The translations under genes were made by a program, and so were the position numbers. This document shows, one piece after another, positions 2,837 to 51,850 of a DNA stretch of 64,000 nucleotides (the stretch's first letter is position 1; the number at the start of each line of letters is the position of its first letter). The stretch comes from Patescibacteria group bacterium. GTDB lineage: Bacteria > Patescibacteriota > Minisyncoccia > Phycocordibacterales > Phycocordibacteraceae. The stretch covers positions 65,133 to 129,132 of the forward strand of contig JAGWVF010000002.1 of assembly GCA_018971045.1 (NCBI GenBank), read 5' to 3'. The notes below the pieces were generated by a model. The model did not search any database. It had not been told where the DNA came from and saw only the letters and a list, made by a program, of their open reading frames with translations.

Positions 2837-3414
2837 AGCGGGAGCGCGTGGGTGAGCGAGGAGGTCGAAGAGGGCGCAAGAAGCCAGTCGGACGTGTCGA
2901 TTTTAATATCGCGGGTATCGCGCAATTCTTTATATTTCAAGATGCCGTGCGTAAGCGCATAGTCGTAGAGCGCGCGCGTAAGCCGCACGTCTTCAAGGCA
3001 ATATTCAGCCACCTTCGCTTTCTTGCCTTCGCGCCACCAGTCCTGCGCTTTCAGGCCGTCTCCCTTTTTTCCTTTTCCCAGGGTCGCCTCTGCAAGTGAT
3101 TGCAGACGGATCCGCCGGCCGAGCGCGCGCTGTACCTCGCGCAAAAGATCAAGCGATCGCAGAAAAGAAAGATCTCCCGGGTAATAGCGGTTCAAAAGCG
3201 GGATGTCGAAGGTGTCCGAGTTAAAGCCGATCAGCTGATCCGCGCGCTCGAGTATCGGCCAGAGCTTCGGCAGATCTTCTTTATAGTACGAGGAATATGA
3301 ATCAGTCTCGGAATCGTGAATGCCGACGACCGTAAGCTCCTGTTCGTTTACGTCAATGTGCCCGCGCACTGCCGAGTTCGAAATGGATTCGATGTCAAAC
3401 GTGATCGCGCGCAT
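2833..3414 (-). CDS. RNase H-fold 3'-5' exonuclease (DEDD-like)
   Basis: 193 aa. Starts MRAITFDIES (Exo I motif DxE); downstream FNSDTFDIPLL and a YCLEDV-containing segment resemble Exo II/III of DnaQ-like exonucleases. 4-nt overlap with the downstream dsbA-like gene. Confidence 0.6.
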   Translation of the reverse strand: MRAITFDIESISNSAVRGHIDVNEQELTVVGIHDSETDSYSSYYKEDLPKLWPILERADQLIGFNSDTFDIPLLNRYYPGDLSFLRSLDLLREVQRALGRRIRLQSLAEATLGKGKKGDGLKAQDWWREGKKAKVAEYCLEDVRLTRALYDYALTHGILKYKELRDTRDIKIDTSDWLLAPSSTSSLTHALPL

Positions 3415-3415
3415 A

Positions 3416-4651
3416 TCAGCCTCCGGAGCGCAGCCGCGCGGGAAGGAGAGAGGTCGGAAGCTCGGTCTCCTCGCCGCTCGCTAGAACTTTCATCCGCACC
3501 GTTTGATTGGCGACCTCGTTCGCGCCATACGCGATGAAGAGCGGTATGCCGCGCCGCACCGCATCCTTGATTTGATCGCCGAGCGAGCGTTCAGTCAGAT
3601 TGACGAACACGCGTCCGCCTTCCGCGCGGAGCGTTTCGGCGAATGCCTGCGCCGCGGGAATGTCGCTTGGAACGGGCGTACCGAGATAGAGATGCGGCGC
3701 GTTCGCGTTCGTCTGCGGCAGGAGACCGCGCGTTTCGAGGAAGTCGATAAGCGTTACGTCTCCCATTCCGAAACCGATCGCCGGCACCGGATCGCCGCCG
3801 TACACCGCCACAAGGCCGTCGTACCGGCCGCCGCCAAAGATCGCACGCGGATTCGCAGGGTTGGTATCGAACACTTCGAAAACGAGCCCGGTGTAGTAAT
3901 CGAAGCCTCGCGTGATGCCGGGATCGAAGACGGCATTTTTAACGCCGCGTTCCCTGAGTGTCGCGATGACCGACTCGATTGGTTCCGCCTCAATATGCGC
4001 GAGCGGGTCCGTGTGGGTAATGGTCTCGCGCGCCGCGGTAAACGCCTCGGGCGTCATCTTCGATCGTTTATCGAGCAAGCGGAGATAGGAACGGACATCT
4101 TCTTCCGTAAGCCCCGCTACCTTGCAGGCGGCGTTCAGAAGTTCGCGCGAATTGACGCGGATGACGAAATCGCTGTCCGTTGCGCCGAATGCCTTCAAGA
4201 GCTCGGACGCGATCGTCACGATTTCAATATCGGCTTCGCTCGATCCGATACCGACCAAATCGACGTTCAGTTGATAATGTTCGCGTAGCCTTCCTTTTTG
4301 CGGACGTTCATAGCGAAAGACATTCGGAAGCGAGAACCAGCGGAGAGGAAAAGTGAGTTCGCGCCGCTTCGCCGCGATCATGCGAGCGAGGGTCGGAGTC
4401 ATCTCGGGCCGGAGCGTTACTCTCCGATCTCCGCGGTCGATGAAAGTATACGTTTGCTCAGAGACGATCTCTTCGGAGGTCTTCGCCTCGTAGAGTTCGG
4501 CGCGTTCGAGCGGGGAGGCGTTGTACTCTTCGTATCCCCAGCGCGCGAGAGTATCACGGATCTGCGCGAAGAGCGCGATCATGCGCGCCCAGTCGCCGGG
4601 ATAAAAATCGCGCACGCCCTTGTACGGGTCAGTCGAAAAAGGTTCGGCCAT
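3416..4651 (-). CDS. hisS: histidine--tRNA ligase
   Basis: 411 aa. Class II aaRS motifs and HisRS-specific segments (RGFDYYTGLVFE, GGGRYDGL) plus a C-terminal anticodon-binding domain. Confidence 0.95.
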   Translation of the reverse strand: MAEPFSTDPYKGVRDFYPGDWARMIALFAQIRDTLARWGYEEYNASPLERAELYEAKTSEEIVSEQTYTFIDRGDRRVTLRPEMTPTLARMIAAKRRELTFPLRWFSLPNVFRYERPQKGRLREHYQLNVDLVGIGSSEADIEIVTIASELLKAFGATDSDFVIRVNSRELLNAACKVAGLTEEDVRSYLRLLDKRSKMTPEAFTAARETITHTDPLAHIEAEPIESVIATLRERGVKNAVFDPGITRGFDYYTGLVFEVFDTNPANPRAIFGGGRYDGLVAVYGGDPVPAIGFGMGDVTLIDFLETRGLLPQTNANAPHLYLGTPVPSDIPAAQAFAETLRAEGGRVFVNLTERSLGDQIKDAVRRGIPLFIAYGANEVANQTVRMKVLASGEETELPTSLLPARLRSGG

Positions 4652-7955: not shown

Positions 7956-9317
7956 ATGTCGCTCCTCCATAGCGTTGAATCGGCACAGAAAAAAATAACC
8001 TCGAAAACCGGATTACGGTTCGAGCCATGGCCGCTCCTTCTTGTCGCTCTATCGGTTCTCCTCATGGCGTTTGTCTTTATGCCGAGCGTCGCAATGCTCT
8101 CGTTCTCGATGGCGCTCTTTCTCGCGCCGATATGGCTCCCCCTCTTGCTTGTCGGCGGCGCGATCGATCTCTGGTACATCTATAAACGCTCGGAATTCAT
8201 CGCGAGTAAACAATATGTTCTCCTTGAGATAAAGCCTCCGCGCAATCTCGCCAAAACGCCTCTCGCTATGGAGACATTCCTTTCGACGCTGCACCTGACC
8301 GGAGGCGAGTCGACCTGGTGGGCGCGTTTGAATGGAGGAACCCGCCCTTTCTGGTCGCTTGAGATCGCTTCGTTTGAAGGTCAGGTGCATTTCTTTATCT
8401 GGGGGCGCGCTGATTTCCGCAGGCTTATCGAATCGCAGCTGTATGCCCAGTATCCAGGCGTGCATATCGCCGAATCGCTTGACTACACTCGCCTCATCTC
8501 AGCAGCGCCCGAGGAATGGAGTCTGTGGGGGTGCGATTTTATGCATATGGCCGCCGATCCGCTGCCCATCAGGACGTACATTGAATACGGACTTGATAAA
8601 GTACAAAAAGAGCCGGAACAGACCGACCCGCTCGCCAATCTTATCGAGTTCATGGGCTCCATCGGAAAAGGGGAGTATCTCTGGCTCCAATTCATCGTGC
8701 GCGCTCATAAAGGAGAGAAGTATCATAAACACAATGAGAAAGGCGATCCCTTCACGTGGAAAGATTTGGCGAACGAGCTGGTTCAGGATATTCGGAAAGC
8801 GACTCGTGATCCTTATGTCGATCCGGCTACCGGCGAAGAACGGCCAGGATTTCCGAATCCTACCAAAGGTCAGGTAGAAAAAATCGCCGCGATCGAGCGC
8901 AACGTCTCAAAACTCGCGTTCGATGTCGGCGGACGCGGCGTGTATCTCTCTCGGCCGGAACATTTCCACAGCGCGACGATCCCTCAAATGATCTCTCTCT
9001 TTAAGCCGTTTAACTCGGAAGGGTGGAACGGGATCAAAGCATCGGCGTGGCTCATGCGTTTCGACGATTATCCGTGGGAAGTCGGCGTTTCGAAAAAGAA
9101 AGATCATTATCGCCGCGAGCTGGTTGACGCGTTCCGCCGCAGGCAGTTTTTCCATGACCCTTTTCATGAGGGAGGATTGCATGCGGATGACGCCATGGTT
9201 ATGAGCACCGAAGAGCTCGCGACCATCTTCCACATTCCCTCGCGCTCGGTCGAGACGCCAGGTCTCGGACGCGTGCAATCAGCGACCGGCGAAGCGCCGC
9301 CAGACCTGCCCGTCTAG
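7956..9317 (+). CDS. membrane protein: 2 N-terminal TM helices plus a domain paralogous to the N-terminal domain of the 49073-51847 ATPase
   Basis: 453 aa. TM helices LLLVALSVLLMAFVF and LFLAPIWLPLLLVGGAI. The soluble part aligns block by block with residues ~150-520 of the 924-aa ATPase (LLEIKPP~LYEIALPEP; FWSLEIASFEGQVHFFIWG~YYALELAVPAHSPELQFYAAIP; IESQLYAQYPGVHI~FEKQLLAVFPGARL; DPLANLIEF~DPLNALINAF; STEELATIFHIPSRSVETPGLGRV~SLRELTTIYHFPPSGMESSPHLRQ). Confidence 0.7.
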   Translation: MSLLHSVESAQKKITSKTGLRFEPWPLLLVALSVLLMAFVFMPSVAMLSFSMALFLAPIWLPLLLVGGAIDLWYIYKRSEFIASKQYVLLEIKPPRNLAKTPLAMETFLSTLHLTGGESTWWARLNGGTRPFWSLEIASFEGQVHFFIWGRADFRRLIESQLYAQYPGVHIAESLDYTRLISAAPEEWSLWGCDFMHMAADPLPIRTYIEYGLDKVQKEPEQTDPLANLIEFMGSIGKGEYLWLQFIVRAHKGEKYHKHNEKGDPFTWKDLANELVQDIRKATRDPYVDPATGEERPGFPNPTKGQVEKIAAIERNVSKLAFDVGGRGVYLSRPEHFHSATIPQMISLFKPFNSEGWNGIKASAWLMRFDDYPWEVGVSKKKDHYRRELVDAFRRRQFFHDPFHEGGLHADDAMVMSTEELATIFHIPSRSVETPGLGRVQSATGEAPPDLPV

Positions 9318-9321
9318 AGTC

Positions 9322-10293
9322 ATGCCGTTTCCAAGATTTCCTGCTCTCCAGAAGCGGTATCGGTGGCGCATGGCGGCATCAATCGCCGGAATGCTTCTGG
9401 TCAGCTACGCGCTCGTATTCGCTCCGCCGTCTTCCTTCCCGTCAGGGACAGTTCTTCTCGTTCAGCGCGGAGAAGGCGTTCCCGACATCGTGAAGAAATT
9501 TGCTGACGCGCATATCGTCGCCCACCCGTCGGTGCTACGCTTTATTCTGCGCGTCATGGACGCGGGGAATACGGTACAAGCCGGCGCTTACCGTTTCCCC
9601 CGCCCAGAGAGCGTGCTTTCGGTTGCGTATCGCTTGAGTCATGGTGAGTACGGCATTCCCTCCGTCCGCATCACGGTGACGGAAGGCGCAACGGTCCGCG
9701 AATTAGCCGATCAGGTCGCCGCCGCGTTTCCGGAAATATCGGCGGAGGACATGCGCGCGGCGGGCATGAAATACGAAGGATATCTCTTTCCGGACACCTA
9801 CACCTTTCCGCCGGGAACCGACGCGGACTCGGTGATTGCCGCCATGCGCGGCAATTTCGAGACGAAAATCGCTCCTTTGAAGGAGAGCATCGCGGCATCG
9901 GGACACTCGCTCTCTGCTGTTATCACGATGGCATCGCTTCTTGAGAAGGAGGCGCGCACCCTTGAGAGCAAGAAGATGGTCGCGGGCATCTTGTGGAATC
10001 GTCTCGCGCTCGGTATGCCGCTTCAGGTCGACGCAGTTTTCGGGTATATTTATAATCGGGAGACGTACTCGCCCTCGTACGCCGACCTCAAAGTAGATTC
10101 TCCCTATAACACCTACCTTCATAAAGGCCTCCCGCCCGGACCCATCAATAATCCGGGACTCGAGAGCATCGAAGCGGCGTTGAGTCCCACGAAAACTCCC
10201 TATCTCTACTACCTCACGGGGAATGATAATCAAATGCATTACGCCTCAACCTACGCCGGCCACCTTGCCAACCAGCGAAGCTATTTGCGATAG
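9322..10293 (+). CDS. mltG: endolytic murein transglycosylase MltG (YceG family)
   Basis: 323 aa. N-terminal TM anchor and the YceG signature region (GYLFPDTYTF, LLEKEA, GLPPGPINNPG). Confidence 0.9.
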   Translation: MPFPRFPALQKRYRWRMAASIAGMLLVSYALVFAPPSSFPSGTVLLVQRGEGVPDIVKKFADAHIVAHPSVLRFILRVMDAGNTVQAGAYRFPRPESVLSVAYRLSHGEYGIPSVRITVTEGATVRELADQVAAAFPEISAEDMRAAGMKYEGYLFPDTYTFPPGTDADSVIAAMRGNFETKIAPLKESIAASGHSLSAVITMASLLEKEARTLESKKMVAGILWNRLALGMPLQVDAVFGYIYNRETYSPSYADLKVDSPYNTYLHKGLPPGPINNPGLESIEAALSPTKTPYLYYLTGNDNQMHYASTYAGHLANQRSYLR

Positions 10294-10359
10294 TCTTAAG
10301 GGGCGGAATACGAATAAGACCATAGCTAAAGAATCGATTTTTTGCTAAATTTTATTCAT

Positions 10360-12210
10360 ATGGAAAAGCACCCCCTACATCTCAAAAACCCAGAACTTCA
10401 GACTTCTCCTGAGGTCAATCGAGCTGTTGTTCAAGAAGAACGCCACACTGGCGAAAAAATGCCGAACGATCCTGGCGAGCGTATCGAAGCCTACATGGAT
10501 CGGCTTGAGAACATTTTCTTAAATCCGGACGAACGGAAGCGAGAGCGCAATCTCGAAATGTTCCGGGACAAGATTTATGACGCGCTCATCATAAAAAAAG
10601 AAAATTTTCCTGACAGCTATTTCGAACTCCAAAAGCGCATTGCGCGAGAGCGCGGCCAAGCCGTGGAAGAAATTCCGGAAAACGTCCGCGAGCAGATGAT
10701 GGACGTAGCCATCGATGATCAGAGGGCCTCGCTCGACGCATGGATCAACTACCTCGCCTCCGATGACGCCGTATATCCGGCGTGGTTCAAATACTACGCC
10801 TGGAATCAGATCACCAAGCTCTCCCAGTTCGACAAGGAGCGGGGCGAGTTCAAGAAGCGTACCGCTTCGACGGTCGCACCCTTTCCCGATATCTATCGCG
10901 AGCCATTAGCGCAGATCGCCGATCTCTACGAACGCGTCAAAGACGACAATAAAGACTCGGAAGCCCGTCGCGAATTCGACAAGAAGTTCCCCGTGCTCTA
11001 TGCCGAGCTCATCCAGAAATCACTCGCGGCACAGATAGAGAACAAGGAGAACGTCTCCGGGCAATGGGTGAAGTATGAGCAAGGAGACAGCGAAGCGGCG
11101 GAGAAACTTTATCAATCGCTCGAGGGCAAGGGCACCGGCTGGTGCACGGCCGGACATTCTACGGCGCAGGCGCAAATTAATAGCGGAGACTTTTATGTCT
11201 ACTACACCAATGACTCAAACGGCGAGCCGACCCAACCTCGTCTTGCCATTCGTATGAATGGCGACAACCGAATCGGCGAAGTGAGAGGCATCCTCCCTCA
11301 TCAAGGCGTTGAGCCGATCATGCAGGAAGTGCTTGATACCAAACTTCAAGAATTCGGCGGCGAAGCGGACGCATACCGCAAGAAAAGCGCGGATATGAAA
11401 ATGCTCACTGCGCTTGATCAGAAGAAAGAACAGGATCAACCCTTTGATAAGGACGATCTTGTATTCCTCTACGAAATCAATTCATCCATTGAAGGCTTCG
11501 GCTACCAGACCGATCCGCGCATCGCCGAACTCCGTCAAGAACGAAACGTCGAGGAAGACATGCTCACGATCTTTGAATGCACGAAAGACGAGATCGCTTA
11601 CGTCCCAAGCCAGATCACGAAAGACACTAAAGCCTATGTCGGACAGCTTGAGCCGGGCATCTTCCAGAAACTGCCCGAAGGTCTTGAGCATATGTACACT
11701 TCTTTCCCTGAAAAGAAAATCCGTAGGGATAGCATCGAGGTCGGCGGCAAGTCCGCGGAACAGCTCATATCCGAACTAAAAGCGGCAGGCATCCAGATTA
11801 CAAACAATGCAATGAGAATGCTTCTGAACAAGAAAGCATTCATTCCGACAAAAGATCTCGAGGATATGACCCTTATTCGCCTCGCTGTCGACGACCTCCT
11901 CGACTTCGAGCAGGATCCGTCCACCGATCGAATATTCGAGCGAGCGCAAGAGCTCGGTCTGGAAATCTGCCCGCCGGATACCGGCCCGGCTTGGCGCCTT
12001 AAGTATCGCAACCAGCCTTCGGGAAGATTGTTCATCGGCATGAAGCCAATCACTTGCTCCGACGGCCGCTCGCTCGGCCGCTCGTTCGTGTTCGGCCTGA
12101 CCCGGACCGACGACGGCGGCTTGTGGCTGTCCAACGATTGGGCGGATCCCGACGGCGAGTGGTTTCCGTACGACACGTTCGCGTTCCGTCTCCGCAAGCC
12201 TGAAGCTTAA
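10360..12210 (+). CDS. large hypothetical protein (616 aa), locally lower GC
   Basis: Long ORF with no recognisable domain. Preceded by an AT-rich segment. An alternative TTG start lies at 10342. GC by eye is about 50% against the ~60% window average. Confidence 0.6.
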   Translation: MEKHPLHLKNPELQTSPEVNRAVVQEERHTGEKMPNDPGERIEAYMDRLENIFLNPDERKRERNLEMFRDKIYDALIIKKENFPDSYFELQKRIARERGQAVEEIPENVREQMMDVAIDDQRASLDAWINYLASDDAVYPAWFKYYAWNQITKLSQFDKERGEFKKRTASTVAPFPDIYREPLAQIADLYERVKDDNKDSEARREFDKKFPVLYAELIQKSLAAQIENKENVSGQWVKYEQGDSEAAEKLYQSLEGKGTGWCTAGHSTAQAQINSGDFYVYYTNDSNGEPTQPRLAIRMNGDNRIGEVRGILPHQGVEPIMQEVLDTKLQEFGGEADAYRKKSADMKMLTALDQKKEQDQPFDKDDLVFLYEINSSIEGFGYQTDPRIAELRQERNVEEDMLTIFECTKDEIAYVPSQITKDTKAYVGQLEPGIFQKLPEGLEHMYTSFPEKKIRRDSIEVGGKSAEQLISELKAAGIQITNNAMRMLLNKKAFIPTKDLEDMTLIRLAVDDLLDFEQDPSTDRIFERAQELGLEICPPDTGPAWRLKYRNQPSGRLFIGMKPITCSDGRSLGRSFVFGLTRTDDGGLWLSNDWADPDGEWFPYDTFAFRLRKPEA

Positions 12211-12272: not shown

Positions 12273-13307
12273 ATGATCAGAATTTGGAATAAGTACGAAC
12301 AATTAAATACCCCTCTTAAAAGAAAGATATTTGTTGGGCTCTCGGGGGGTGTGGACTCGGCAGTGTCTGCCGCGCTTTTGAAACAAGCGGGAGCGCGCGT
12401 GACGGGCGTGTTTATCAAGGGGTGGTATCCCCCAGGGATACCGTGCGGGTGGGCGGCCGAGCGCCGCGACGCCATGCGGGTCGCGGCGCGGCTCTCGATC
12501 CCGTTTCTTACGCTTGACGCGAGCGAGGAATATAAAAAGGGCGTCATCGAGTATCTGCTTGACGAGTATCGCGCGGGGCGGACTCCGAATCCCGATGTGA
12601 TGTGCAATCGCGAAGTAAAGTTCGGCGCGTTTTATCGATTCATGAAGGCCGAGGGAGCCGATGCCATGGCGACCGGACACTACCGGAGCGGCGCAAAGGA
12701 TCAGAGTTATTTTTTATGGGCGGTGCCAAAGGAAATTCTTGAAACGGCGCTCTTTCCGGTCGGAGATCTGGAAAAAGAAAGGGTGCGCGCGCTCGCGGCT
12801 ACCTTCAACCTTCCGGTCGCCACGAAAAAAGACAGTCAGGGCGTCTGCTTTCTTGGGAATGTATCGGTTGACGAGTTCCTGCGGAGTGAATTCGGCACTA
12901 ATCCTGGCGTAGCCGTTGAGAGCTCGGGGCGGGTCGTCGGTGAGCACGATGGCGCACTTCTCTCTACCCTTGGCCAACGGGTGGCGCTCCGGAACGCCGT
13001 GGAGGAGGGGCCGTGGTTCGTGCTCTCGAAAGACATCAAGAAGAATGAATTGCGCGTCGAGAAGCGTAGCACGCAAAAGCGTATCAGTGCGCCGCGCGAA
13101 ATCCGATTTACTGACGCGAATTGGATCCAGGAGGCGGCACAAGCGACTGAAGCGCAGTACCGGTATCGCGGAGAGCACGTGCCCGGCCGCGTTTTTAATG
13201 ACCGCTTTATCGCCGCCGCGCCGCTCTCCGAGCCGCCCGCGCCAGGACAGTCGCTTGTGTTCTATGGCGCCAACGGACTCGCGGGCGGTGGTATCATTGC
13301 GGCATGA
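12273..13307 (+). CDS. mnmA: tRNA-specific 2-thiouridylase MnmA
   Basis: PP-loop motif VGLSGGVDSAV and the conserved catalytic Cys region. The start is taken at the internal ATG (MIRIWNKY); the ORF track begins at 12216. Confidence 0.9.
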   Translation: MIRIWNKYEQLNTPLKRKIFVGLSGGVDSAVSAALLKQAGARVTGVFIKGWYPPGIPCGWAAERRDAMRVAARLSIPFLTLDASEEYKKGVIEYLLDEYRAGRTPNPDVMCNREVKFGAFYRFMKAEGADAMATGHYRSGAKDQSYFLWAVPKEILETALFPVGDLEKERVRALAATFNLPVATKKDSQGVCFLGNVSVDEFLRSEFGTNPGVAVESSGRVVGEHDGALLSTLGQRVALRNAVEEGPWFVLSKDIKKNELRVEKRSTQKRISAPREIRFTDANWIQEAAQATEAQYRYRGEHVPGRVFNDRFIAAAPLSEPPAPGQSLVFYGANGLAGGGIIAA

Positions 13308-13714
13308 ATCAGAAACGCTTGTGGATCTCCGCGGCTATTATCGGCGTGTTTATTTTTATCGGATTCGTACTGTCCGTGCCGCATACCACGCGCGACGCGG
13401 TCCCGATCGAGAAACAAAACGCTGCCGCCGCGCCGACAGTCGCTCTGCGCGACACGTATAAGAAGGGCGTGCATCTGTTCGCTGGCTCGCTCTTAGTACC
13501 GACCGCCTGCACTACGGCGAGCACGACTGCCAGCCTCATCGGCGCGGCATCGAGCACCGAGAGCATCCTAATCGCGCTCTCGCTCTCAACCGACGCGCGC
13601 GTTTGTCTTCAGTTGCCGACGCAAGTTACTTTTTCGGCCGTGCTTGTCGCTCCAGACACGCTCCCGATTACGGTGACGGTAGACGGAGTCGTGGCGAGCA
13701 CGACCGCGCTATGA
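13304..13714 (+). CDS. small membrane-anchored protein (hypothetical)
   Basis: 136 aa. One N-terminal TM helix then an Ala/Thr/Ser-rich region. ATGA overlaps at both ends (with mnmA and with the 13711 gene). Confidence 0.5.
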   Translation: MNQKRLWISAAIIGVFIFIGFVLSVPHTTRDAVPIEKQNAAAAPTVALRDTYKKGVHLFAGSLLVPTACTTASTTASLIGAASSTESILIALSLSTDARVCLQLPTQVTFSAVLVAPDTLPITVTVDGVVASTTAL

Positions 13715-14550
13715 CGGAACACCCGATTATTATCAAGGCCGATGGAGCAACCGAGGTCTTCGATCCGACTCGTTTGATGATGTCGCTTGAGCAAGCGGGC
13801 GCCGGCGTGCACTCCGCCGAACGCATCGCGCGTTCGATCGCCGCGACGGTACACGCGGGCGCGTCCTCAAAGGACATTTATTCTCGCGCGTTTGCGATGT
13901 TGCGGAAAGAGGCGCGGCCGGTTGCGGCCCGTTACGCGCTTCGGCGAGCGCTCCTCGAGCTTGGACCGACGGGGCACCCGTTTGAAGATTTCGTCTCGCA
14001 TCTCTTTCGCAAAGAAGGCTGGCAGGTCGAGACGCGCAAGCTTATTCAGGGGAAGTGCGTTCAGCACGAAGTTGATTTTTACGCGGCGCATCCGGAACAG
14101 AACACCTATCTCGCGGCGGAGCTCAAATACCATAATGATCCGAGTTACAAAACCGATCTTAAGGTCGCTCTCTATGTCAAAAGCCGATTCGACGATATTT
14201 TCTCCTGTGATCCTGAAGCCCGATCTTGCCCTATCGATCGCGGCCTCCTCGTGACGAATACGAAGTTCACCTCGGAAGCGATCGCCTACGCGCAGTGCTC
14301 GGGCGTCGAGCTTCTTGGGTGGGGGTATCCTATCGACAACACTCTGTACATGCATATGAATCGTCTGAAGGTCTTTCCCATCACGGCGCTCACGACGTTC
14401 TCGCTCTCGGAGAAGCGATTACTCATAGAGAGCGGGGTGATTGCCGTGGACGAGGTCGCGCGCGACCGCAGTCTTCTCGACGTACTCCACCTCTCGAGTG
14501 AACGGGTTGGCGAAGTCCTCGCCGAAGCCGAGGGATTACTGGAGAGCTGA
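13711..14550 (+). CDS. ATP-cone domain + Mrr-like (PD-(D/E)XK) restriction-endonuclease-fold protein
   Basis: N-terminus IIIKADGATEVFDPTRLMMSLEQAG...AERIARSI resembles an ATP-cone (NrdR/RNR-type). Central region FEDFVSHLFRKEGWQVE...HEVDFYAAH...AAELKYH matches the Mrr_cat D...(E)xK core. Confidence 0.65.
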   Translation: MTEHPIIIKADGATEVFDPTRLMMSLEQAGAGVHSAERIARSIAATVHAGASSKDIYSRAFAMLRKEARPVAARYALRRALLELGPTGHPFEDFVSHLFRKEGWQVETRKLIQGKCVQHEVDFYAAHPEQNTYLAAELKYHNDPSYKTDLKVALYVKSRFDDIFSCDPEARSCPIDRGLLVTNTKFTSEAIAYAQCSGVELLGWGYPIDNTLYMHMNRLKVFPITALTTFSLSEKRLLIESGVIAVDEVARDRSLLDVLHLSSERVGEVLAEAEGLLES

Positions 14551-15810
14551 CCGGCGCGCGTATTTGAGTTCTTCGCGCGCGACGGCTGCATCGCTCCACG
14601 GGATGCGGGTGCCGTTCGGACCCATGATGTACGGGCCGGCGCCCTTACCGGTGATGATGACGGCGGAACCTTTGGGAGCGATAGAGAAGGCTTTGCGCAT
14701 GGCAAGGCGGCGATCTTCTATGTATTCATGCTGGTGCATGCGGATTCCACTCGCGACATCGTCGGCGATCGCCCTCGGAGATTCGTCATAAGGATCTTCG
14801 GTGGTGAGGATAATGTACTCACAGTGCTTGTCGGCAACCGCGCCCATCACAGCGCGCTTCGCGACATCGCGCCCGCCGCCGGTTCCGCCGAGGATTCCGA
14901 TGAGGTGATGATTCTTATAGACCGTATACGCGCGTTCGAGCGAGTCGGCCGTGTGCGCGTAGTCGATAATGACAGTGAAATTCTGCCCTTCCTCGATACG
15001 CTCCATCCTGCCTGGGACGAGCTTGAACTTTTCAAGCGCGGATTTGATACTCTCGGAAGCTATGCCGAGAGATTCGGCGAGCGTCGCGGCCGCGAGCGCG
15101 TTCATGATATTAAATTCGCCCGGCAAATTGAGATGGATATTCGCGCCGCGCCAGACCATATTTCCGCCTTCAGGCGAGGTGGTGAACGGTTCTGCGTCGC
15201 GGATGCTGTAAGTGCGCTTAATGCCAGCATGCACCGCAAGGAATTTCTCGGCCTCGGCGTCATCGCGGTTTACCACGATGGTGTGGCGGAGCGCAGCGCC
15301 TTTTTCAAGCTGGCGCGCGAGGCTGAGCTTCGCCGCGACGTAGTTCTCGTAGGATCCGTGCGATTCGATATGTTCGGGCGAAAGGTTGGTGAATATGAGC
15401 GCGTCAAGGTCGACAAAGACGTGGCGAAATTGCTTCGCCCCCTCCGAAGTCATCTCGATAACGGCGTGAGTGCATCCGGCATCGATCGCGCGGCGGAAGA
15501 ATCGCTGTAACAATGTCCGCCCGAGCATGCTGCGTTTCGTGAGATTCTGTTCGCTCTTTCCGGCGATTTTGAGGTGGTTGGTATTCGCGAGCGCTACGGT
15601 ATGGCCGGCCTCTTCGAGAATAGCCGCAAGGAGTTCAGTGGTAGTCGTCTTGCCTTTGGTGCCGGTTACGCCGATCACAAAGAGCCGTTTTGAAGGGAAG
15701 CCGAAGCGCATCGCGCCTATGCCCGCGAGGAGATAATGGTAGACCGGTTGGAGGAGCGAAAAAAGCCGTTTCGGAATGTATTTCTTCGCTATTTTAAGGA
15801 ATGTTTCCAT
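14536..15810 (-). CDS. murE: Mur ligase family protein, MurE-like (UDP-MurNAc-L-Ala-D-Glu:diamino acid ligase)
   Basis: 424 aa. P-loop GVTGTKGKTTT, Mur ligase central and C-terminal domains (DYAHT, HxxG region). Confidence 0.75.
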   Translation of the reverse strand: METFLKIAKKYIPKRLFSLLQPVYHYLLAGIGAMRFGFPSKRLFVIGVTGTKGKTTTTELLAAILEEAGHTVALANTNHLKIAGKSEQNLTKRSMLGRTLLQRFFRRAIDAGCTHAVIEMTSEGAKQFRHVFVDLDALIFTNLSPEHIESHGSYENYVAAKLSLARQLEKGAALRHTIVVNRDDAEAEKFLAVHAGIKRTYSIRDAEPFTTSPEGGNMVWRGANIHLNLPGEFNIMNALAAATLAESLGIASESIKSALEKFKLVPGRMERIEEGQNFTVIIDYAHTADSLERAYTVYKNHHLIGILGGTGGGRDVAKRAVMGAVADKHCEYIILTTEDPYDESPRAIADDVASGIRMHQHEYIEDRRLAMRKAFSIAPKGSAVIITGKGAGPYIMGPNGTRIPWSDAAVAREELKYARRSALQ

Positions 15811-15830
15811 GCGTGGTATAGTAGCTCAAT

Positions 15831-17690
15831 ATGTGTGGCATCGCCGGTATCATTCGCCCCGAGAAGAGGGGGCAAGAAGCGCTTGATCAGATGCTGGACC
15901 GTATTATACACCGCGGACCGGACGACAGCGGGACCTACGTCGACGCCTCTATCGCGCTTGGGATGCGGCGGCTGAGCATTATTGACGTCGCCGGCGGGAA
16001 ACAGCCGATCTCTTCCGAGGACGGCTCGCTCATCATCGTCTTTAACGGCGAGATTTACAATTTCAAAGAACTGCGTCGAGGGCTTGTAGCGCGGAATCAC
16101 CTATTCAAAACCGATTCCGATACTGAAGTCATTTTGCATCTTTATGAGGAATACGGACCTGCGGCGGTACGAAAACTGCGCGGTATGTTTACTTTTTTCA
16201 TTTACGATATGAAGAAAGGGAAGATCTTCGTAGCGCGCGACCCCTTCGGCATCAAGCCGCTCTATTACCTTGAAGAAAACGGCGCGAAGCGCGCGTTCGC
16301 ATCAGAAATAAAAAGCCTTCTCGCGTATCCCGGGTATCAAAAAGAGATCAATGAAGAAGCGATGTACCAATATCTTTCGTTCCAATACAATCCGCTTCGC
16401 GAGACGTTCTTCCGCGGAATCTATCGACTGCCGCCCGCAACGACGCTCCTTATCGATGCGTCGACCGGAGAAGCGGAAGAGCAGGTCTATTGGGATTACG
16501 AATTCCAGGAAGACGCGGAGATGGAAGAACATTCCGCGACCGAGAAGCTCGAGAGTCTTTTGAAAGATTCAGTCGAGCACCACCTGCTCAGCGATGTGCC
16601 ATTGGGCGCGTTTCTTTCCGGCGGCATCGACAGCGCGCTGATCGTGGGAGCCATTCGCGCGATCCATCCGACCGGTGAACTGAGGACATTTACCATCGGA
16701 TCGAAAGAAATCAATGAATTTAACGAGGCGCGCGAGCAGTCCGACGCTCTCCATACGACGCATACCGAGATCGTGCTCGATCCTGACGAATACTTCGCGC
16801 TGCTCCCGCGCATCGCGTGGCACTTTGACGAGCCGGTCGCCGATCCGGCCGCGATCGCGCTTTACTTCCTCGCGCGCGAGGCGCGGAAGCACGTGAAGGT
16901 GGTGCTCTCGGGCGAGGGCGCCGACGAGCTCTTCGGCGGCTACGGAATCTATCGCGAACCGTACTCCTTTGCGCGTTTTGAAAAGAGCGTGCCGAGGGCG
17001 CTGCGCTCGCTACTGCTTTTCTTCGCCCGCGTTCCCGTCCCCGTTCGCGGCATGAATTTTCTGCGCCGGTACCGAAAGCCGCTCGCGGATCGCTATATCG
17101 GCAATGCGTATATCTTCTCGGACGCTGAAGCTCGGAGAATCTGGCGCGGGAAGCCGCACGCGCGCATGAACCTCAAACCGCTGTATGAGAACGTGAAGAT
17201 GCTCTCGGAACCGACGCAGATGCAGTATATCGATATGCATACGTGGCTTCCGGGCGACATTCTCGCAAAAGCGGATAAGATGACGATGGCGCATTCGCTT
17301 GAATTGCGCGTGCCCTTTCTCGATATGAAAGTCGCGAACTTCGCGCGCATGATTCCGGACGCGCTGCGGTATAAGGACGGCACGGTGGGGAATGCGAAGT
17401 ATCTTTTGCGGAAGGCGGCGAAGGCATTCGTACCGCCTACGACCCAGAGACGCACCAAGCTCGGCTTTCCCATTCCGCTCGCCGAGTGGTTGCGGAATCG
17501 TTCCGACTGGCAGGAAAAATTACTCACGCATCCTTTCTTAAAAAAATATTTTGATATGGAGCTCGTGCAGGAGCTAGCTCGCGACCATATCTCGGGAGCG
17601 CGAAACAATGCCCGCAAGATCTTCATCTTCATGATGCTTGCGGCATGGTATGATGCCTACTTCACCGACGCGCTCACGCGTATTCAATAA
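15831..17690 (+). CDS. asnB: asparagine synthase (glutamine-hydrolysing) AsnB
   Basis: 619 aa. N-terminal MCGIAG Ntn-amidotransferase start and the PP-loop SGGIDS. Confidence 0.9.
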   Translation: MCGIAGIIRPEKRGQEALDQMLDRIIHRGPDDSGTYVDASIALGMRRLSIIDVAGGKQPISSEDGSLIIVFNGEIYNFKELRRGLVARNHLFKTDSDTEVILHLYEEYGPAAVRKLRGMFTFFIYDMKKGKIFVARDPFGIKPLYYLEENGAKRAFASEIKSLLAYPGYQKEINEEAMYQYLSFQYNPLRETFFRGIYRLPPATTLLIDASTGEAEEQVYWDYEFQEDAEMEEHSATEKLESLLKDSVEHHLLSDVPLGAFLSGGIDSALIVGAIRAIHPTGELRTFTIGSKEINEFNEAREQSDALHTTHTEIVLDPDEYFALLPRIAWHFDEPVADPAAIALYFLAREARKHVKVVLSGEGADELFGGYGIYREPYSFARFEKSVPRALRSLLLFFARVPVPVRGMNFLRRYRKPLADRYIGNAYIFSDAEARRIWRGKPHARMNLKPLYENVKMLSEPTQMQYIDMHTWLPGDILAKADKMTMAHSLELRVPFLDMKVANFARMIPDALRYKDGTVGNAKYLLRKAAKAFVPPTTQRRTKLGFPIPLAEWLRNRSDWQEKLLTHPFLKKYFDMELVQELARDHISGARNNARKIFIFMMLAAWYDAYFTDALTRIQ

Positions 17691-17698
17691 TAAATACT

Positions 17699-18490
17699 AT
17701 GGCGACAAAATCTCCGCGCACCGGCAGCATCTTCGATCCGCATTCTGCGGAGCCGTTTAAAGTAAGTCGATCAAAAATCGATCTTTTCACCGAATGTCCG
17801 CGTTGCGCCTATCTCGATATGCGTCTTGGCGTAAAACGCCCCTCGACGCCCTCCTTCACGCTTAATAACGCCGTCGACGAGCTCCTGAAACGGGAGTTTG
17901 ATATCCATCGGGCCGCCGGCAGTACGCATCCGCTTGTCGAGAAATACGGCCTCAATGCCGTTCCGCTTGCCGACGACCGGCTCGAAGAATGGCGCGACGC
18001 TCTGCGCCGGGGAATCGCGTATCTGCATGAACCGACCAATATTCTCGTGCGCGGCGGCATCGACGACGTATGGGTCAATCCGAAGGGCGACCTCATCGTC
18101 GTAGACTACAAGGCAACGAGTAAAAAAGTCGGCCCGAGTACCGAGGATGATCTGTATGACGCGTATAAGCGGCAGGTTGAGATTTACCAGTGGCTCTTCC
18201 GCAGGAACGGCTTTTCGGTCTCGCCGACGGCGTATTTCGTTTATGTGAACGGAAAATCCGATGCCAAAGCGTTCGACGCGAAGCTTGAGTTTGACGTCGA
18301 ACTGATCCCGTACGCCGGTAGCGACGCGTGGGTCGAGCCGGCGATCTATGACTTGAAGAAGATGCTTATGAGCGATGAGATCCCGCCGGTCGGCACCTCT
18401 TTCGGCGGCGGACCGTGCGAGCACTGCACGTATCGCGAGGCGGCGGGCAAGGAGCTTCAAGCGCTCCACGCTAAGAATAAGAAAGCGTAG
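17699..18490 (+). CDS. Cas4-like PD-(D/E)XK nuclease with 4-Cys Fe-S cluster signature
   Basis: 263 aa. One N-terminal Cys (ECPRCAYL) plus C-terminal GGGPCEHCTYR. Nuclease motifs GIDDV...VVDYKATSK...QVEIYQWL. Confidence 0.7.
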   Translation: MATKSPRTGSIFDPHSAEPFKVSRSKIDLFTECPRCAYLDMRLGVKRPSTPSFTLNNAVDELLKREFDIHRAAGSTHPLVEKYGLNAVPLADDRLEEWRDALRRGIAYLHEPTNILVRGGIDDVWVNPKGDLIVVDYKATSKKVGPSTEDDLYDAYKRQVEIYQWLFRRNGFSVSPTAYFVYVNGKSDAKAFDAKLEFDVELIPYAGSDAWVEPAIYDLKKMLMSDEIPPVGTSFGGGPCEHCTYREAAGKELQALHAKNKKA

Positions 18491-18770: not shown

Positions 18771-19439
18771 ATGGAAGTGAGAATTGAGGAGAGTTGGAAA
18801 GAGAAACTGCACGATGAATTCTCGAAGCAGTATTTTGTCGAACTCGCGGAGTTCGTAAAAAAGGAGTACCGCGAGAAAGCGGTGTATCCGGCGCCAAAAA
18901 ATATTTTCCGCGCGTTCGAACTTTGTCCGTTTGATACCGTGGACGTCGTCATCCTCGGACAAGATCCGTACCACGGCGAGCGGCAAGCCAACGGCCTCGC
19001 ATTCGCGGTTGATGAGGGGCGGCAGATCCCGCCGTCGCTCCTGAATATTTTTAAAGAAATAGCGCATGATTTCGGCAAGCCGCTTGAGCATACTGACGGC
19101 GATCTTGCCCGCTGGGCGAAGCAGGGAGTCCTGCTGTTGAACGCGACGCTGACCGTGCGCGCGCACGCCGCTGGATCGCATCAAGATCGCGGCTGGGAGT
19201 CATTTACCGATGCCGTCATCCGCTCGCTCTCCGAAGAGCGCGAACATCTCGTTTTTATGCTCTGGGGAAATTACGCGAAAGCGAAAGGCGCGCACCTTAA
19301 CCGTAAGAAGCACCTCGTACTCGAGGCTCCGCACCCCTCGCCGCTCTCGGCATCCTCAGGCTTTTTCGGTTGCGGCCATTTCAGCAAGGCGAATGACTAC
19401 CTCATTGCGAGCGGCAAGAGTCCGATAGACTGGCTCTAA
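18771..19439 (+). CDS. ung: uracil-DNA glycosylase (family 1)
   Basis: 222 aa. ILGQDPYH water-activating motif and the C-terminal HPSPLS motif. Confidence 0.9.
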   Translation: MEVRIEESWKEKLHDEFSKQYFVELAEFVKKEYREKAVYPAPKNIFRAFELCPFDTVDVVILGQDPYHGERQANGLAFAVDEGRQIPPSLLNIFKEIAHDFGKPLEHTDGDLARWAKQGVLLLNATLTVRAHAAGSHQDRGWESFTDAVIRSLSEEREHLVFMLWGNYAKAKGAHLNRKKHLVLEAPHPSPLSASSGFFGCGHFSKANDYLIASGKSPIDWL

Positions 19440-19459: not shown

Positions 19460-20032
19460 ATGAACCATACTCCGCAGATTAAGAGAGCGATACAATTTGC
19501 GGCCCGAAAGCATCACGGGCAGATGCGCCGAGAAGCGGATCCGTTGCCGTATATCACGCACCCTTTTTCAGTGGCGCTTCTTGTGGCCGAAGACGGCGCT
19601 CACGACGATGTCGTTACGGCCGCGCTTCTGCACGATACGATCGAGGATACCGGAACGACGCGCGAAGAGATCGCCGCCGTCTTTAACGACCGGGTCGCCG
19701 ACTTAGTCGTCGCGGTAAGCGAGATCAAGAAGCGCAACGGCAAATCGATCGCTTGGAAGGAGCGCAAGGTGGATTATTTTACGCGTTTGGAACATTCCAA
19801 TGACGACGCCATTTTGATTGCCGTCGCCGATAAGATAGACAATATCGAGAGCAAGCTTGAAGCGTATGCAAAAGAGGGCGACGCGCTTCTCGCCCGTTGG
19901 AGACAGTCGCCGAGCGAATATCTTTGGTATCACGAAGAGGCGCTCCGTATCGCTACCCGGCGTCTTCCTGATCACACGCTCACGAAGCGTCTCGCCGAGG
20001 CTCACGCCCGCGAACGCGAGGCGTTTGCGTAG
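19460..20032 (+). CDS. HD-domain phosphohydrolase (RelA/SpoT-like small alarmone hydrolase candidate)
   Basis: 190 aa. HD motif (HPFSVALLV...LLHDTIEDT) resembling the Rel/SpoT hydrolase domain. Confidence 0.65.
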   Translation: MNHTPQIKRAIQFAARKHHGQMRREADPLPYITHPFSVALLVAEDGAHDDVVTAALLHDTIEDTGTTREEIAAVFNDRVADLVVAVSEIKKRNGKSIAWKERKVDYFTRLEHSNDDAILIAVADKIDNIESKLEAYAKEGDALLARWRQSPSEYLWYHEEALRIATRRLPDHTLTKRLAEAHAREREAFA

Positions 20033-20033
20033 G

Positions 20034-22001
20034 TTACCAAATCTTCGCGCGATCTCGCGGCTCTCGATAGAGTTTGTCGCCTTTCTTCACGCCGAATGCC
20101 GCGTAAAACTCGGGAAGGTTTGAGGCCGGACCATTGATGCGGAATTGGCCGGGCGAATGCGGATCGGTCATCACCTGCGTCTTCTCCGATTCGGGACGGC
20201 GGTTCTCGCGCTCGAAGAGCGCGAAGCTTAAGAAGAATCGCTGTTCGGGAGTGAAGCCGTCGATATCTTTTCGTCCCGTTTTCTTTAATCGGTTTTGATA
20301 CGCGTCAAAGGCGATCGATGCGCCTCCGAGATCGGCGATATTCTCTCCGAGGGTAAGCTCGCCGTTCACCCGAAGTCCGTCGGCGACGGCATACTCGTTA
20401 AATTCGCGCACCAGCCGCTTCGTCCTTTCTTCAAATCGCCTGCGATCTTCCGGCGTCCACCATGTTTTCCGGTTTCCTTTGCCGTCGAACTTCGATCCCT
20501 GATCGTCGAAGCCGTGCGTGATCTCGTGGCCGATTACCGATCCGATCGATCCGTAGTTCACCGCATCGTCAGCCTCGATCGAGAAGAAGGGCGGCTGGAG
20601 GATCGCCGCGGGGAAGACGACATCGTTTAAACCGAAACTGCAGTACGCGTTCACCGTCTGCGGATACATGAACCACTCCTTACGATCCACCGGCTTTCGG
20701 AGCCGGCGCATCACGCGCGCGTGTTCCTGAAGCGAGGCGCGGAGCACGTTCCCGAAGTAGTCGTCAGGTCGGATAGAGAGTCCTCGATAGCTTTTCCATA
20801 TATCAGGATAGCCGAGCTTGCGATTCACCTGGCGCAATTTTTGAATCGCTTTTCTTTTTGTAGTGGAGCCCATCCAGTCGAGATTCTTGATTCGCGTCTC
20901 GTACGCTTCAAAGAGATCATCAACGACTTGATTAATATGTTTTTTAGCCTTCTGGGTGAAGTGCTGTTCGACATAGAGTTTCCCCAGCACTTCACCCAGG
21001 CTTCCGTTCACAACGCCAAGAACACGCCGCCAGACGGGCTTCATCGTCTTCACGCCCGAAAGAGCCGTGCCGTAGAAGGCGAAACTTTGCTTTTCAAGCT
21101 TCGTTCCGAGGTAGGGCGAAGCACCGCTCACAAGATGCCACAGGAGAAAGATCTTCCAATCCTCGATCGAGACGTTCGCGAGAAGGGCATTCATCGCTTT
21201 CATGAACTTTGGCTGCATTAAGACTACGTTTCGGGGAGTGCCGGCGCCGACGATCTTGAAGTAGCTCGGCCAATCCACATTCGGCGCGAGCTTGGCGAGC
21301 TTGGCGGTCGATAGCTTGTGGTACGTTTTGTCGACGTCGCGGAGCTCTTCTTTTGGCATCGAGGCTTTCGCGATCTCCGTTTCGATGCGGAGCACGATCT
21401 CGCGTTTCTTCTTTGCATCCGCTTTCGACTCGCCCGTAAGAGCGAACATCGTCTCCACGTGTTTCTCATATGCGTCTCGTACGCGTCTCGACTCCGCGTC
21501 ATCGTTAAGATAATAGTCTCGGTCGGGCATCCCGAGTCCGCTCTGATGGAGGTAGAGGATATATTTCTCGCTGTTTTTCATATCCTGATCGACGGCGAGG
21601 CCGAACGGGCCTCCGCCACCGATCTTTTCAAGATGGGCGAGCGCGGTTACCAGCGAACGCGCGTCCTTAATCTTCTCGATCTTCTGAAGCCACGGCTGAA
21701 GCGGAGTGATGCCCGCCTTGTTTCTTGATGCGAGATCGAGGCCGGAGCGATAGAAGTCGCGAACCATCTGCGCAGGCGTACCGGCTTTCGCGCTCTTCAG
21801 CTTCAACGCGTCCTCAACGATTTTCTTGAGTTGTTTTTCAGTCTCGTAGCGGAGGATGAGGAAGGATCCCCAGCGCGACTCGTGAGGAGGGATCGGATTC
21901 TTCGCGAGCCACCCGCCGTTTACGTGCCGGTAAAAATCATCTTGCGGCCGCACGCCGGTATCCCTGTCCCGGGCATCAAATCCCCAATTCTTTTTCTTCA
22001 T
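20034..22001 (-). CDS. pepO: M13-family zinc metallopeptidase (PepO/neprilysin-like)
   Basis: 655 aa. HEITHGFDD zinc-binding HExxH motif, downstream ENIADLGG, overall M13 length. Confidence 0.85.
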   Translation of the reverse strand: MKKKNWGFDARDRDTGVRPQDDFYRHVNGGWLAKNPIPPHESRWGSFLILRYETEKQLKKIVEDALKLKSAKAGTPAQMVRDFYRSGLDLASRNKAGITPLQPWLQKIEKIKDARSLVTALAHLEKIGGGGPFGLAVDQDMKNSEKYILYLHQSGLGMPDRDYYLNDDAESRRVRDAYEKHVETMFALTGESKADAKKKREIVLRIETEIAKASMPKEELRDVDKTYHKLSTAKLAKLAPNVDWPSYFKIVGAGTPRNVVLMQPKFMKAMNALLANVSIEDWKIFLLWHLVSGASPYLGTKLEKQSFAFYGTALSGVKTMKPVWRRVLGVVNGSLGEVLGKLYVEQHFTQKAKKHINQVVDDLFEAYETRIKNLDWMGSTTKRKAIQKLRQVNRKLGYPDIWKSYRGLSIRPDDYFGNVLRASLQEHARVMRRLRKPVDRKEWFMYPQTVNAYCSFGLNDVVFPAAILQPPFFSIEADDAVNYGSIGSVIGHEITHGFDDQGSKFDGKGNRKTWWTPEDRRRFEERTKRLVREFNEYAVADGLRVNGELTLGENIADLGGASIAFDAYQNRLKKTGRKDIDGFTPEQRFFLSFALFERENRRPESEKTQVMTDPHSPGQFRINGPASNLPEFYAAFGVKKGDKLYREPRDRAKIW

Positions 22002-51847: not shown

Positions 51848-51850
51848 CGT

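Follow-up and report, generated by a model that had tools for sequence, protein, structure and literature searches.

Analysis of a 64,000-nucleotide stretch of DNA from a Patescibacteria genome (contig JAGWVF010000002.1; this whole stretch is referred to as the window) identified a gene for a three-domain protein, consisting of an N-terminal ATP-cone, a PD-(D/E)XK nuclease and an AF1548-like C-terminal domain. It is the last of three genes joined by overlapping stop and start codons, the first being mnmA and the second encoding a small membrane-anchored protein (Table 1). The nuclease gene is best read as a vertically inherited housekeeping gene of Patescibacteria, not as a defence gene. We favour, at a probability of about 0.55, the view that its product is a housekeeping endonuclease gated by nucleotides and acting together with a partner exonuclease.

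Domain organisation and active site

A preliminary description of this DNA had proposed that the last of the three proteins fuses an ATP-cone to an Mrr-type PD-(D/E)XK core. This is borne out: the quoted motifs, HEVDF (holding D122) and AAELKYH (holding E137 and K139), are real, and the catalytic set is intact. With HMMER, Mrr_cat exceeds its Pfam cut-off in the window protein (26.1 bits against 21) and is matched by 98 of 110 family members; the ATP-cone falls below its cut-off in this one protein but is established family-wide, PF03477 being matched by 97 of the 110 at E ≤ 1e-3 (best 1.3e-10). The conservation set was made up of 110 diverse homologues at 32–44% identity, plus one at 73%. Searched against the PDB, the family profile also detects two known ATP-cones, that of NrdD from P. 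copri and that of NrdR from E. coli (E ~0.003–0.006). In the AlphaFold2 model of the protein (pLDDT 97.0, pTM 0.92), residues 6–82 form a β-hairpin followed by helices and residues 212–278 are helical; the first ~83 residues of this model superpose on the cones of E. coli NrdR at 2.2–2.5 Å. Because of the family-wide PF03477 matches, the profile matches to NrdD and NrdR and the superposition on NrdR, we regard the ATP-cone call as secure despite the sub-threshold score.

The remainder of the chain resembles AF1548 of Archaeoglobus fulgidus (PDB 1Y88), to which residues 94–276 are homologous with E = 2.7e-21 from the single sequence and 1.9e-51 from the family profile, and which Foldseek matches to the model with E = 5e-13. 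The residues predicted to be catalytic in AF1548, D38, E51 and K53 (PMC1821046), align with D122, E137 and K139. Together with E92, these three are invariant in the 110 homologues; the metal-binding PD-(D/E)XK site is intact, and cleavage by the core is predicted to be metal-dependent. The C-terminal domain is more variable in its matches: PF22357 (AF1548-like_C) is found in 56 of the 110 members, one of the members weakly matches HHH_5, and the window protein alone has no PF22357 match at E ≤ 1.

The conservation extends into the cone, where K9 and G12 are invariant and F17, K21, T53 and Y75 nearly so, and into the linker G85-P86-x-G88-x-P90-F91-E92, which runs from the cone straight into the first catalytic helix. 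Here G85, G88 and F91 are invariant in the 110 homologues and P86 nearly so, while P86 and P90 are invariant in a 12-sequence alignment across phyla.

The preliminary description had implied that such a fusion is rare, which is not borne out. An exhaustive HMMER search of 1.84 billion representative sequences gave 1,001 matches at E ≤ 1e-3, 358 of them at E ≤ 1e-30; among the matches listed, nearly all are 270–290 residues long and aligned end to end. A profile search of 90% clusters returned at least 4,775 clusters at E ≤ 1e-10, and the cone is present in essentially all full-length members. The fusion is spread over Patescibacteria, Bacteroidota, Chlamydiota and Dependentiae, the carriers including Kaiserbacteria, Wolfebacteria and Parcubacteria within Patescibacteria, Saprospiraceae, Balneolaceae, Pontibacter, Criblamydia and Dependentiae, and one of them, Pontibacter actiniarum DSM 19842, is cultivable. 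Source databases name these proteins 'ATP cone domain-containing protein', 'restriction endonuclease', 'ATPase' or 'Holliday junction resolvase-like predicted endonuclease'. The same description had also held the arrangement to be uncharacterised, and on this point it stands: literature searches found no experimental study of an ATP-cone/nuclease fusion, and a 2012 survey of PD-(D/E)XK proteins merely groups 1Y88 and COG1787 with Mrr (PMC3424549). We conclude that the fusion is already catalogued in databases and that, according to the literature searches, no member has been characterised experimentally.

The operon and its gene array

Table 1. Features of the nuclease operon, its array and the plasmid cassettes. 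Positions are those of the window unless a plasmid is named.
Feature	Position	Strand	Basis or remark
X453, 453-aa predicted membrane protein	7956–9317	+	No Pfam family; cluster upstream, same strand, in 53 related loci
YceG/MltG	9322–10293	+	Pfam; cluster upstream, same strand, in 53 related loci
622-aa open reading frame between YceG and mnmA	10342–12210	+	No Pfam family; no homologue in 124 related loci
mnmA, tRNA 2-thiouridine(34) synthase, 344 aa	12273..13307, ATG 12273	+	NF001138 equivalog
ATGA overlap, mnmA stop/membrane-protein gene start	13304..13307	+	Read in sequence
Small membrane-anchored protein, 136 aa	13304..13714	+	N-terminal transmembrane helix, then 7-strand β-sandwich (model); 2 invariant Cys
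ATGA overlap, membrane-protein gene stop/nuclease start	13711..13714	+	Read in sequence
ATP-cone + PD-(D/E)XK nuclease gene, 279 aa	13711..14550, ATG 13711	+	Pfam, homologues, AlphaFold2
ATP-cone domain, residues 1–84	13711..13962; K9 at 13735–13737	+	Family-level Pfam, profile, fold superposition
PD-(D/E)XK core, Mrr_cat/AF1548 type, residues 85–205	13963..14325	+	Mrr_cat, 1Y88 homology
Catalytic residues (predicted)	E92 13984–13986; D122 14074–14076; E137 14119–14121; K139 14125–14127	+	Invariant in 110 homologues
AF1548-like C-terminal helical domain, residues 206–279, plus stop codon	14326..14550	+	1Y88 alignment, PF22357 in family
PDDEXK_1 Cas4-like nuclease	17699–18490	+	Pfam; cluster downstream, same strand, in 63 related loci
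UDG	18771–19439	+	Pfam; cluster downstream, same strand, in 35 related loci
HD_4 hydrolase	19460–20032	+	Pfam; cluster downstream, same strand, in 14 related loci
M13 peptidase	20034–22001	-	Belongs to neighbour cluster of related loci
Four-gene cassette, L121	Pontibacter plasmid NZ_CP021236, 1972–6597
Four-gene cassette, L122	Criblamydia plasmid NZ_LK031773, 5995–10602

Translational coupling of the nuclease with MnmA and the membrane-anchored protein is real and conserved. Both of the ATGA overlaps that the preliminary description had pointed to are present, and they are kept among relatives: of the 27 related GTDB genome loci having both genes, all 27 retain the 4-nt overlap between the membrane-protein and nuclease genes, while mnmA and the membrane-protein gene overlap by 4 nt in 20 of 27, with spacings of -1 to +59 nt in the rest. 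We conclude from this retention that the overlaps are not due to chance. Locus L010 has no membrane-protein gene, and there the 4-nt overlap is between mnmA and the nuclease gene themselves. At its longest, the open frame of the nuclease gene begins at TTG 13603; since the identical database protein, P0001, has 279 residues and begins MTEHP, we set the start at ATG 13711.

The identity of the first gene is supported by scores of 308.3 bits for NF001138 (cut-off 284) and 273.5 bits for TIGR00420 in NCBIfam, and its product has all three MnmA domains in Pfam: the tRNA_Me_trans HUP domain, the PRC-barrel and the C-terminal barrel. A scan for promoters and terminators gave no signal above chance, Rfam showed no structured RNA element at the operon, its only matches being two tRNAs far from it, and no anomaly of composition was found over the operon. 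The nuclease gene is single-copy within the window.

The small membrane-anchored protein belongs to no family in Pfam, NCBIfam or PADLOC. Its homologues form only 70 clusters, all from Patescibacteria, all of ~135 residues and none named. The AlphaFold2 model, which was run with database homologues, has a pLDDT of 88 and comprises a transmembrane helix (residues 3–24), a low-confidence linker and a seven-strand β-sandwich (strands within residues 45–135); C69 and C101 are invariant, and a fold search gave no significant match among solved structures. An equivalent open reading frame lies between mnmA and the nuclease gene even at 40–46% nuclease identity and is absent in other lineages. The protein is most simply viewed as a membrane-anchored extracytoplasmic domain inserted into the mnmA–nuclease junction in some lineages, and nothing ties it mechanistically to the nuclease.

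The linkage to mnmA is of wide occurrence. It was assessed in 33 genome loci and 80 metagenome loci, the latter from a scan with the 12-sequence alignment, together with loci from exact look-ups. Only non-redundant loci whose upstream flank was long enough were scored, and the link was counted when mnmA stood on the same strand no more than 700 nt before the nuclease gene. By this measure mnmA precedes the nuclease gene in 69 of 81 loci: in 38 of 38 where the nuclease is at least 67% identical to the window protein, 10 of 10 at 50–66%, 21 of 29 at 38–49% and 0 of 4 below 38%. The adjacency is not, then, peculiar to this genome but is kept down to ~38% protein identity. The gap between the two genes is below 150 nt, with no gene between, in 20 linked loci; in the others the intervening reading frame is always of 126–189 residues (126–158 in all but one) and encodes a protein with two or three Cys and a hydrophobic helix at its N-terminus. 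In a neighbour-joining tree, mnmA-linked sequences occupy several deep branches.

Clustering of the reading frames in 124 non-redundant loci revealed a longer same-strand array, X456 - YceG - mnmA - (membrane protein) - nuclease - (DUF7282) - PDDEXK_1 - UDG - HD, which is kept from 85% down to 38% nuclease identity and in which X456, the counterpart of X453 in the window, has no Pfam family. The idea that mnmA and the nuclease gene make up a self-contained module was considered and rejected, as the pair sits within the longer conserved array. The adjacency to mnmA is for this reason less specific than it looked. We conclude that the mnmA link is real and ancient, and that by itself it is no proof of shared function. 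A second nuclease is a recurrent neighbour: PDDEXK_1 in 63 loci, and a β-CASP protein, described below, in 8 non-redundant loci.

Purifying selection on the nuclease is strong. In 28 genomes with all three genes, the median pairwise identity is 73.8% for the nuclease, 68.2% for MnmA and 48.9% for the membrane-anchored protein, and the nuclease is more conserved than MnmA in 357 of 378 genome pairs. The per-domain medians in these genomes are 69.7% for the cone, 84.3% for the nuclease core and 64.9% for the C-terminal domain. In Patescibacteria the protein ranks among the best-conserved of those encoded around it, and this points to a housekeeping role that is important but has gone unrecognised. 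Its neighbours in the window are those of an ordinary chromosome, among them RpoD, HisRS, AlaRS, RelA/SpoT, Topo I and UvrA.

These observations bear directly on the suggestion in the preliminary description that the protein could be a nucleotide-pool-sensing defence nuclease, with Type IV restriction enzymes being Mrr-like. On this account it would act against phage or other foreign DNA, either as a Type IV restriction enzyme or as an abortive-infection effector that senses nucleotide depletion. Phage infection perturbs nucleotide pools. The protein shares with Mrr and the Type IV enzymes MspJI and AspBHI an Mrr_cat-type domain, with Foldseek similarity of the core to the MspJI and AspBHI catalytic domains and to the nuclease domains of Can2 and Card1, and it gives a weak match to the ZorD nuclease domain (E = 0.012, 11.4 bits). 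That match is the only one in PADLOC, where no defence-system model is matched significantly. Where Mrr has a DNA-recognition domain the N-terminus here is an ATP-cone and, unlike those Type IV enzymes, the protein lacks a modified-DNA recognition domain and a defence context and occupies a core-genome position. Within the window there are no cas genes, and near the operon there is neither a methyltransferase, nor a domain that reads modified DNA, nor any other gene of defence. The family is in essence absent from mobile elements: tblastn against 50,697 phage records gave no match, a scan of IMG/VR viral contigs found no relative, BFVD contains only isolated Mrr-like domains or ribonucleotide reductase cones, and among 72,556 plasmids tblastn found only two carriers, from Pontibacter and Criblamydia, both with the gene inside metabolic cassettes. 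The defence reading is disfavoured because of the lack of a PADLOC match, the absence from phages and viruses, the near-absence from plasmids, a place within a housekeeping array that stays the same over deep divergence, and the conservation above that of MnmA; we consider it very improbable. What looked attractive as a defence gene is instead a large conserved family, of interest to enzymology and to the biology of the candidate phyla radiation.

Two insertions into the array occur only in the window or its close relatives. The 622-residue reading frame between YceG and mnmA is of lower GC content (0.48–0.55) with a strong positive AT skew, and looks like a lineage-specific insertion into the otherwise conserved array. 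Downstream, a Mur ligase gene (- strand) and AsnB form a pair (14536–17690) that separates the nuclease gene from PDDEXK_1; the Mur-ligase-family gene overlaps the nuclease gene tail-to-tail by 15 nt (14536–14550), and a gene of this family at this position is common to only ~10 close relatives, some of the copies being merely 33–37% identical. Elsewhere, in 38 loci (for example L031, 747–1238), the nuclease gene is immediately followed by one for a DUF7282 protein of ~163 residues with an N-terminal hydrophobic segment; the DUF7282 gene is absent from the window. The X453-type gene is always just upstream of YceG in its 53 related loci and is a conserved uncharacterised gene of Patescibacteria. 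In locus L130 the order is YceG, mnmA, nuclease, MgtC and EamA, with AlaRS further downstream.

Partner genes and the proposed mechanism

Outside the array the nuclease gene keeps other company. A β-CASP gene lies at or abuts its stop codon in loci L038–040, L121, L122 and L124–127, with an 84-residue reading frame intervening in L127, and in the neighbour-joining tree the eight loci with β-CASP downstream form one clade with four loci that have neither partner. The β-CASP protein is nearest to aCPSF1 and Cas14, of the RNA type with an RMMBL domain, below the NCBIfam cut-offs. On plasmids of Pontibacter actiniarum and Criblamydia sequanensis (L121 and L122) there is an identical four-gene cassette of nuclease, β-CASP metallo-β-lactamase hydrolase, phosphorylase and Prs, in which a TIGR02645-type phosphorylase and Prs directly follow β-CASP. 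The phosphorylase, an archaeal-type nucleoside/NMP phosphorylase of the thymidine/AMP-phosphorylase family ~500 residues long, passes TIGR02645 and scores 480–486 bits against the AMP phosphorylase model (cut-off 535); the Prs paralogue is a ribose-phosphate diphosphokinase. The Criblamydia cassette is flanked by phosphoketolase, glycogen phosphorylase (GlgP) and acetate kinase. In L124 the phosphorylase gene lies at a greater distance downstream, among those of glycolytic enzymes, and Prs was not seen. Close to the nuclease gene of the Saprospiraceae-type and other loci (L038–040 and L124–127) are genes for type II GAPDH, 2-hydroxyacid dehydrogenase, class I FBP aldolase, PFK and P-type ATPases. 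The occurrence of the cassette in two phyla may reflect a horizontally spread module of nucleic-acid catabolism and energy metabolism, and the Bacteroidota and Chlamydiota loci, with β-CASP and sometimes phosphorylase and Prs, point to regulated nucleic-acid turnover. In the window there is no homologue of the β-CASP, phosphorylase, Prs or GAPDH-II partners.

One locus of Candidatus Wolfebacteria (L128) has at 2511–4004 a gene for a 497-residue divergent SufS-family-like class V aminotransferase, which overlaps the nuclease start by 4 nt and takes the position held elsewhere by mnmA. This is a single case, with a score of 136 bits against a cut-off of 475.

In the mechanism that we favour, the third gene would specify a PD-(D/E)XK endonuclease that is cytoplasmic and metal-dependent and is controlled by the N-terminal ATP-cone, and the nuclease, MnmA and the membrane-anchored protein would be translated in a fixed ratio through the stop/start overlaps. 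The characterised ATP-cones, those of ribonucleotide reductases and NrdR, bind ATP and dATP and act through a change in oligomeric state (bioRxiv 10.1101/2025.03.28.645925). By analogy, the cone of the nuclease may bind nucleotide and gate the enzyme through its oligomeric state or conformation, adenine-nucleotide occupancy toggling between inactive and active assemblies. The active enzyme would then grip nucleic acid by its C-terminal helical domain and cut it endonucleolytically, and the cut product would be processed by a partner exonuclease, PDDEXK_1 in Patescibacteria and β-CASP in Bacteroidota and Chlamydiota. In this way the cell would couple the repair or turnover of its own nucleic acid, and the recycling of nucleotides, to the ATP/dATP pool. 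Cooperation with the neighbouring nucleases and a role in repair or turnover are what we infer from the gene context. DNA is suggested as the substrate by the UDG and Cas4-like neighbours and the helix-hairpin-helix (HhH)-like C-terminal domain, and RNA by MnmA and the RNA-type β-CASP partner. The 'DNA-damage nuclease' offered as an alternative in the preliminary description is plausible.

A number of points weigh against this mechanism. The literature searches found no published nuclease assay or biochemistry for any family member, and the synteny may look more uniform than it is because the loci were found through their similarity to the query. For the window protein alone PF03477 scores 19.9 bits against the cut-off of 25.8 (E = 1.1e-3). 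The cone of the family carries KAxG and not the frequent KRDG, and the position of the discriminating Tyr131 of NrdR, four residues after Y75, is R79 here in the profile alignment, a mapping for which the numbering of the PDB chain is taken to be offset by 2 residues. Because of KAxG and R79, the ligand may be something other than ATP/dATP, or a single site may be in use. The neighbourhood does not fix the substrate since it is mixed, with genes of cell wall, tRNA modification and DNA repair, and a single common role is an assumption because the β-CASP partner is of the RNA type while the partners in Patescibacteria look DNA-directed.

The same properties of the cone could be taken to mean that it is vestigial or structural, and that the protein is a constitutive nuclease, or else a non-catalytic, NrdR-like nucleic-acid-binding regulator, in either case with no nucleotide gating. 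The sub-threshold score, the change from KRDG to KAxG and the absence of the NrdR tyrosine from the aligned position are in keeping with this, as is archaeal AF1548, a 199-residue chain matched from residue 22, which is wholly without a cone. We nevertheless think it unlikely. K9 and G12 are invariant, F17, K21, T53 and Y75 nearly so, the cone is ~70% identical in the close clade and present in essentially all full-length members, and an invariant linker ties it to the catalytic E92; the non-catalytic variant is further opposed by the invariant catalytic tetrad.

A different proposal takes its lead from the operon itself. Sharing a substrate with MnmA, the protein would act on tRNA or other RNA, perhaps as an anticodon or quality-control nuclease that senses the nucleotide pool and attacks the tRNAs in which MnmA makes 2-thiouridine at position 34 (s2U34). 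The upstream position of mnmA, often abutting, in 69 of 81 loci speaks for it, but the pair is embedded in an array with the unrelated YceG, PDDEXK_1, UDG and HD genes, so that adjacency may be inherited synteny, and the link, lost in several loci of Patescibacteria, is missing throughout the Bacteroidota/Chlamydiota clade. The gene that overlaps the nuclease start in L128 is SufS-like, of the enzyme class that supplies sulfur to MnmA; against this, the case is confined to one locus, and the score falls far short of the cut-off. The RNA-type, RMMBL-containing β-CASP partner of the other clade is consistent with an RNA substrate, as is the Foldseek resemblance of the core to Card1 and Can2, PD-(D/E)XK effectors that can cleave RNA. 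The C-terminal domain, on the other hand, is HhH-like, with its one weak HHH_5 match in the family, and HhH-type domains are typical of duplex DNA binders. We judge a nuclease of this kind quite improbable, and are equally doubtful that the protein partners s2U34 thiolation more generally, through MnmA or a cysteine desulfurase, coupling tRNA modification or RNA turnover to ATP/dATP.

Relation to known proteins

The nuclease belongs to the ATP-cone/Mrr_cat/AF1548-like_C family already listed in databases. It has in common with AF1548 the nuclease core and the C-terminal domain (AF1548 residues ~128–199), with the same predicted D, E and K, but AF1548 has no ATP-cone and is a structural-genomics protein, merely predicted to be a restriction endonuclease. 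The cones of NrdR and of class I and class III ribonucleotide reductases are alike in their fold over ~84 N-terminal residues and in the signature K..G..E.F...K; they differ in having KRDG where KAxG is found here, and an outer-site Tyr that is not at the aligned position here. The output differs too, being a nuclease here as against the Zn-ribbon DNA binder of NrdR or a reductase. Pfam and the model show no NrdR-type N-terminal Zn-ribbon in the window nuclease, the cone beginning at about residue 5.

Card1, Can2 and Cdn1 offer an analogy of design, in which an N-terminal sensor of small molecules is fused to a PD-(D/E)XK nuclease, and Foldseek finds the cores alike (7bdv, 8bao, 6xl1 and 9u49). 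Their sensor is a CARF domain, in a CRISPR/cyclic-oligoadenylate context, whereas here an ATP-cone occurs in a housekeeping context off mobile elements; Pfam detects no CARF domain in the window nuclease. A further likeness may be to XPF, Mus81 and Hef, structure-specific endonucleases in which a nuclease of the restriction-endonuclease fold is followed by an HhH-type DNA-binding domain, a domain grammar that the window nuclease would share. Overall, we conclude that the nuclease is not a member of the Mrr Type IV enzymes, of NrdR or of the CARF nucleases, whose defining features it lacks.

To our knowledge, the only role of ATP-cones established by experiment is that of sensing ATP/dATP for ribonucleotide reductases and for their repressor NrdR. 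If the cone does control the nuclease, this allosteric module would extend to nucleic-acid cleavage, as a new variant of known allosteric designs. Patescibacteria have minimal genomes and depend on nucleotide salvage. Were the tRNA proposal to be correct, the protein would be the first nuclease to be gated by an ATP-cone, and would add a new level of control over translation in organisms unable to make their own nucleotides.

Some minor observations concern the surroundings of the family and of the operon. In locus L129 (3801–7047) the nuclease gene overlaps a DUF2933 gene upstream and a heavy-metal P-type ATPase gene downstream by 4 nt each, and heavy-metal or cation P-type ATPases and copper genes (YHS, multicopper oxidase) recur near members not linked to mnmA (L129, L040, L122, L123, L127, L034, L038 and L125). 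Within the window, a second PDDEXK_1 paralogue of 279 residues is encoded after RpoD (1311–2150, + strand), outside the conserved array, and at 49073–53611 (+ strand) two large uncharacterised genes encode a 924-residue protein with only a weak HerA/DUF87 match and, following it, a 586-residue protein that belongs to no family.

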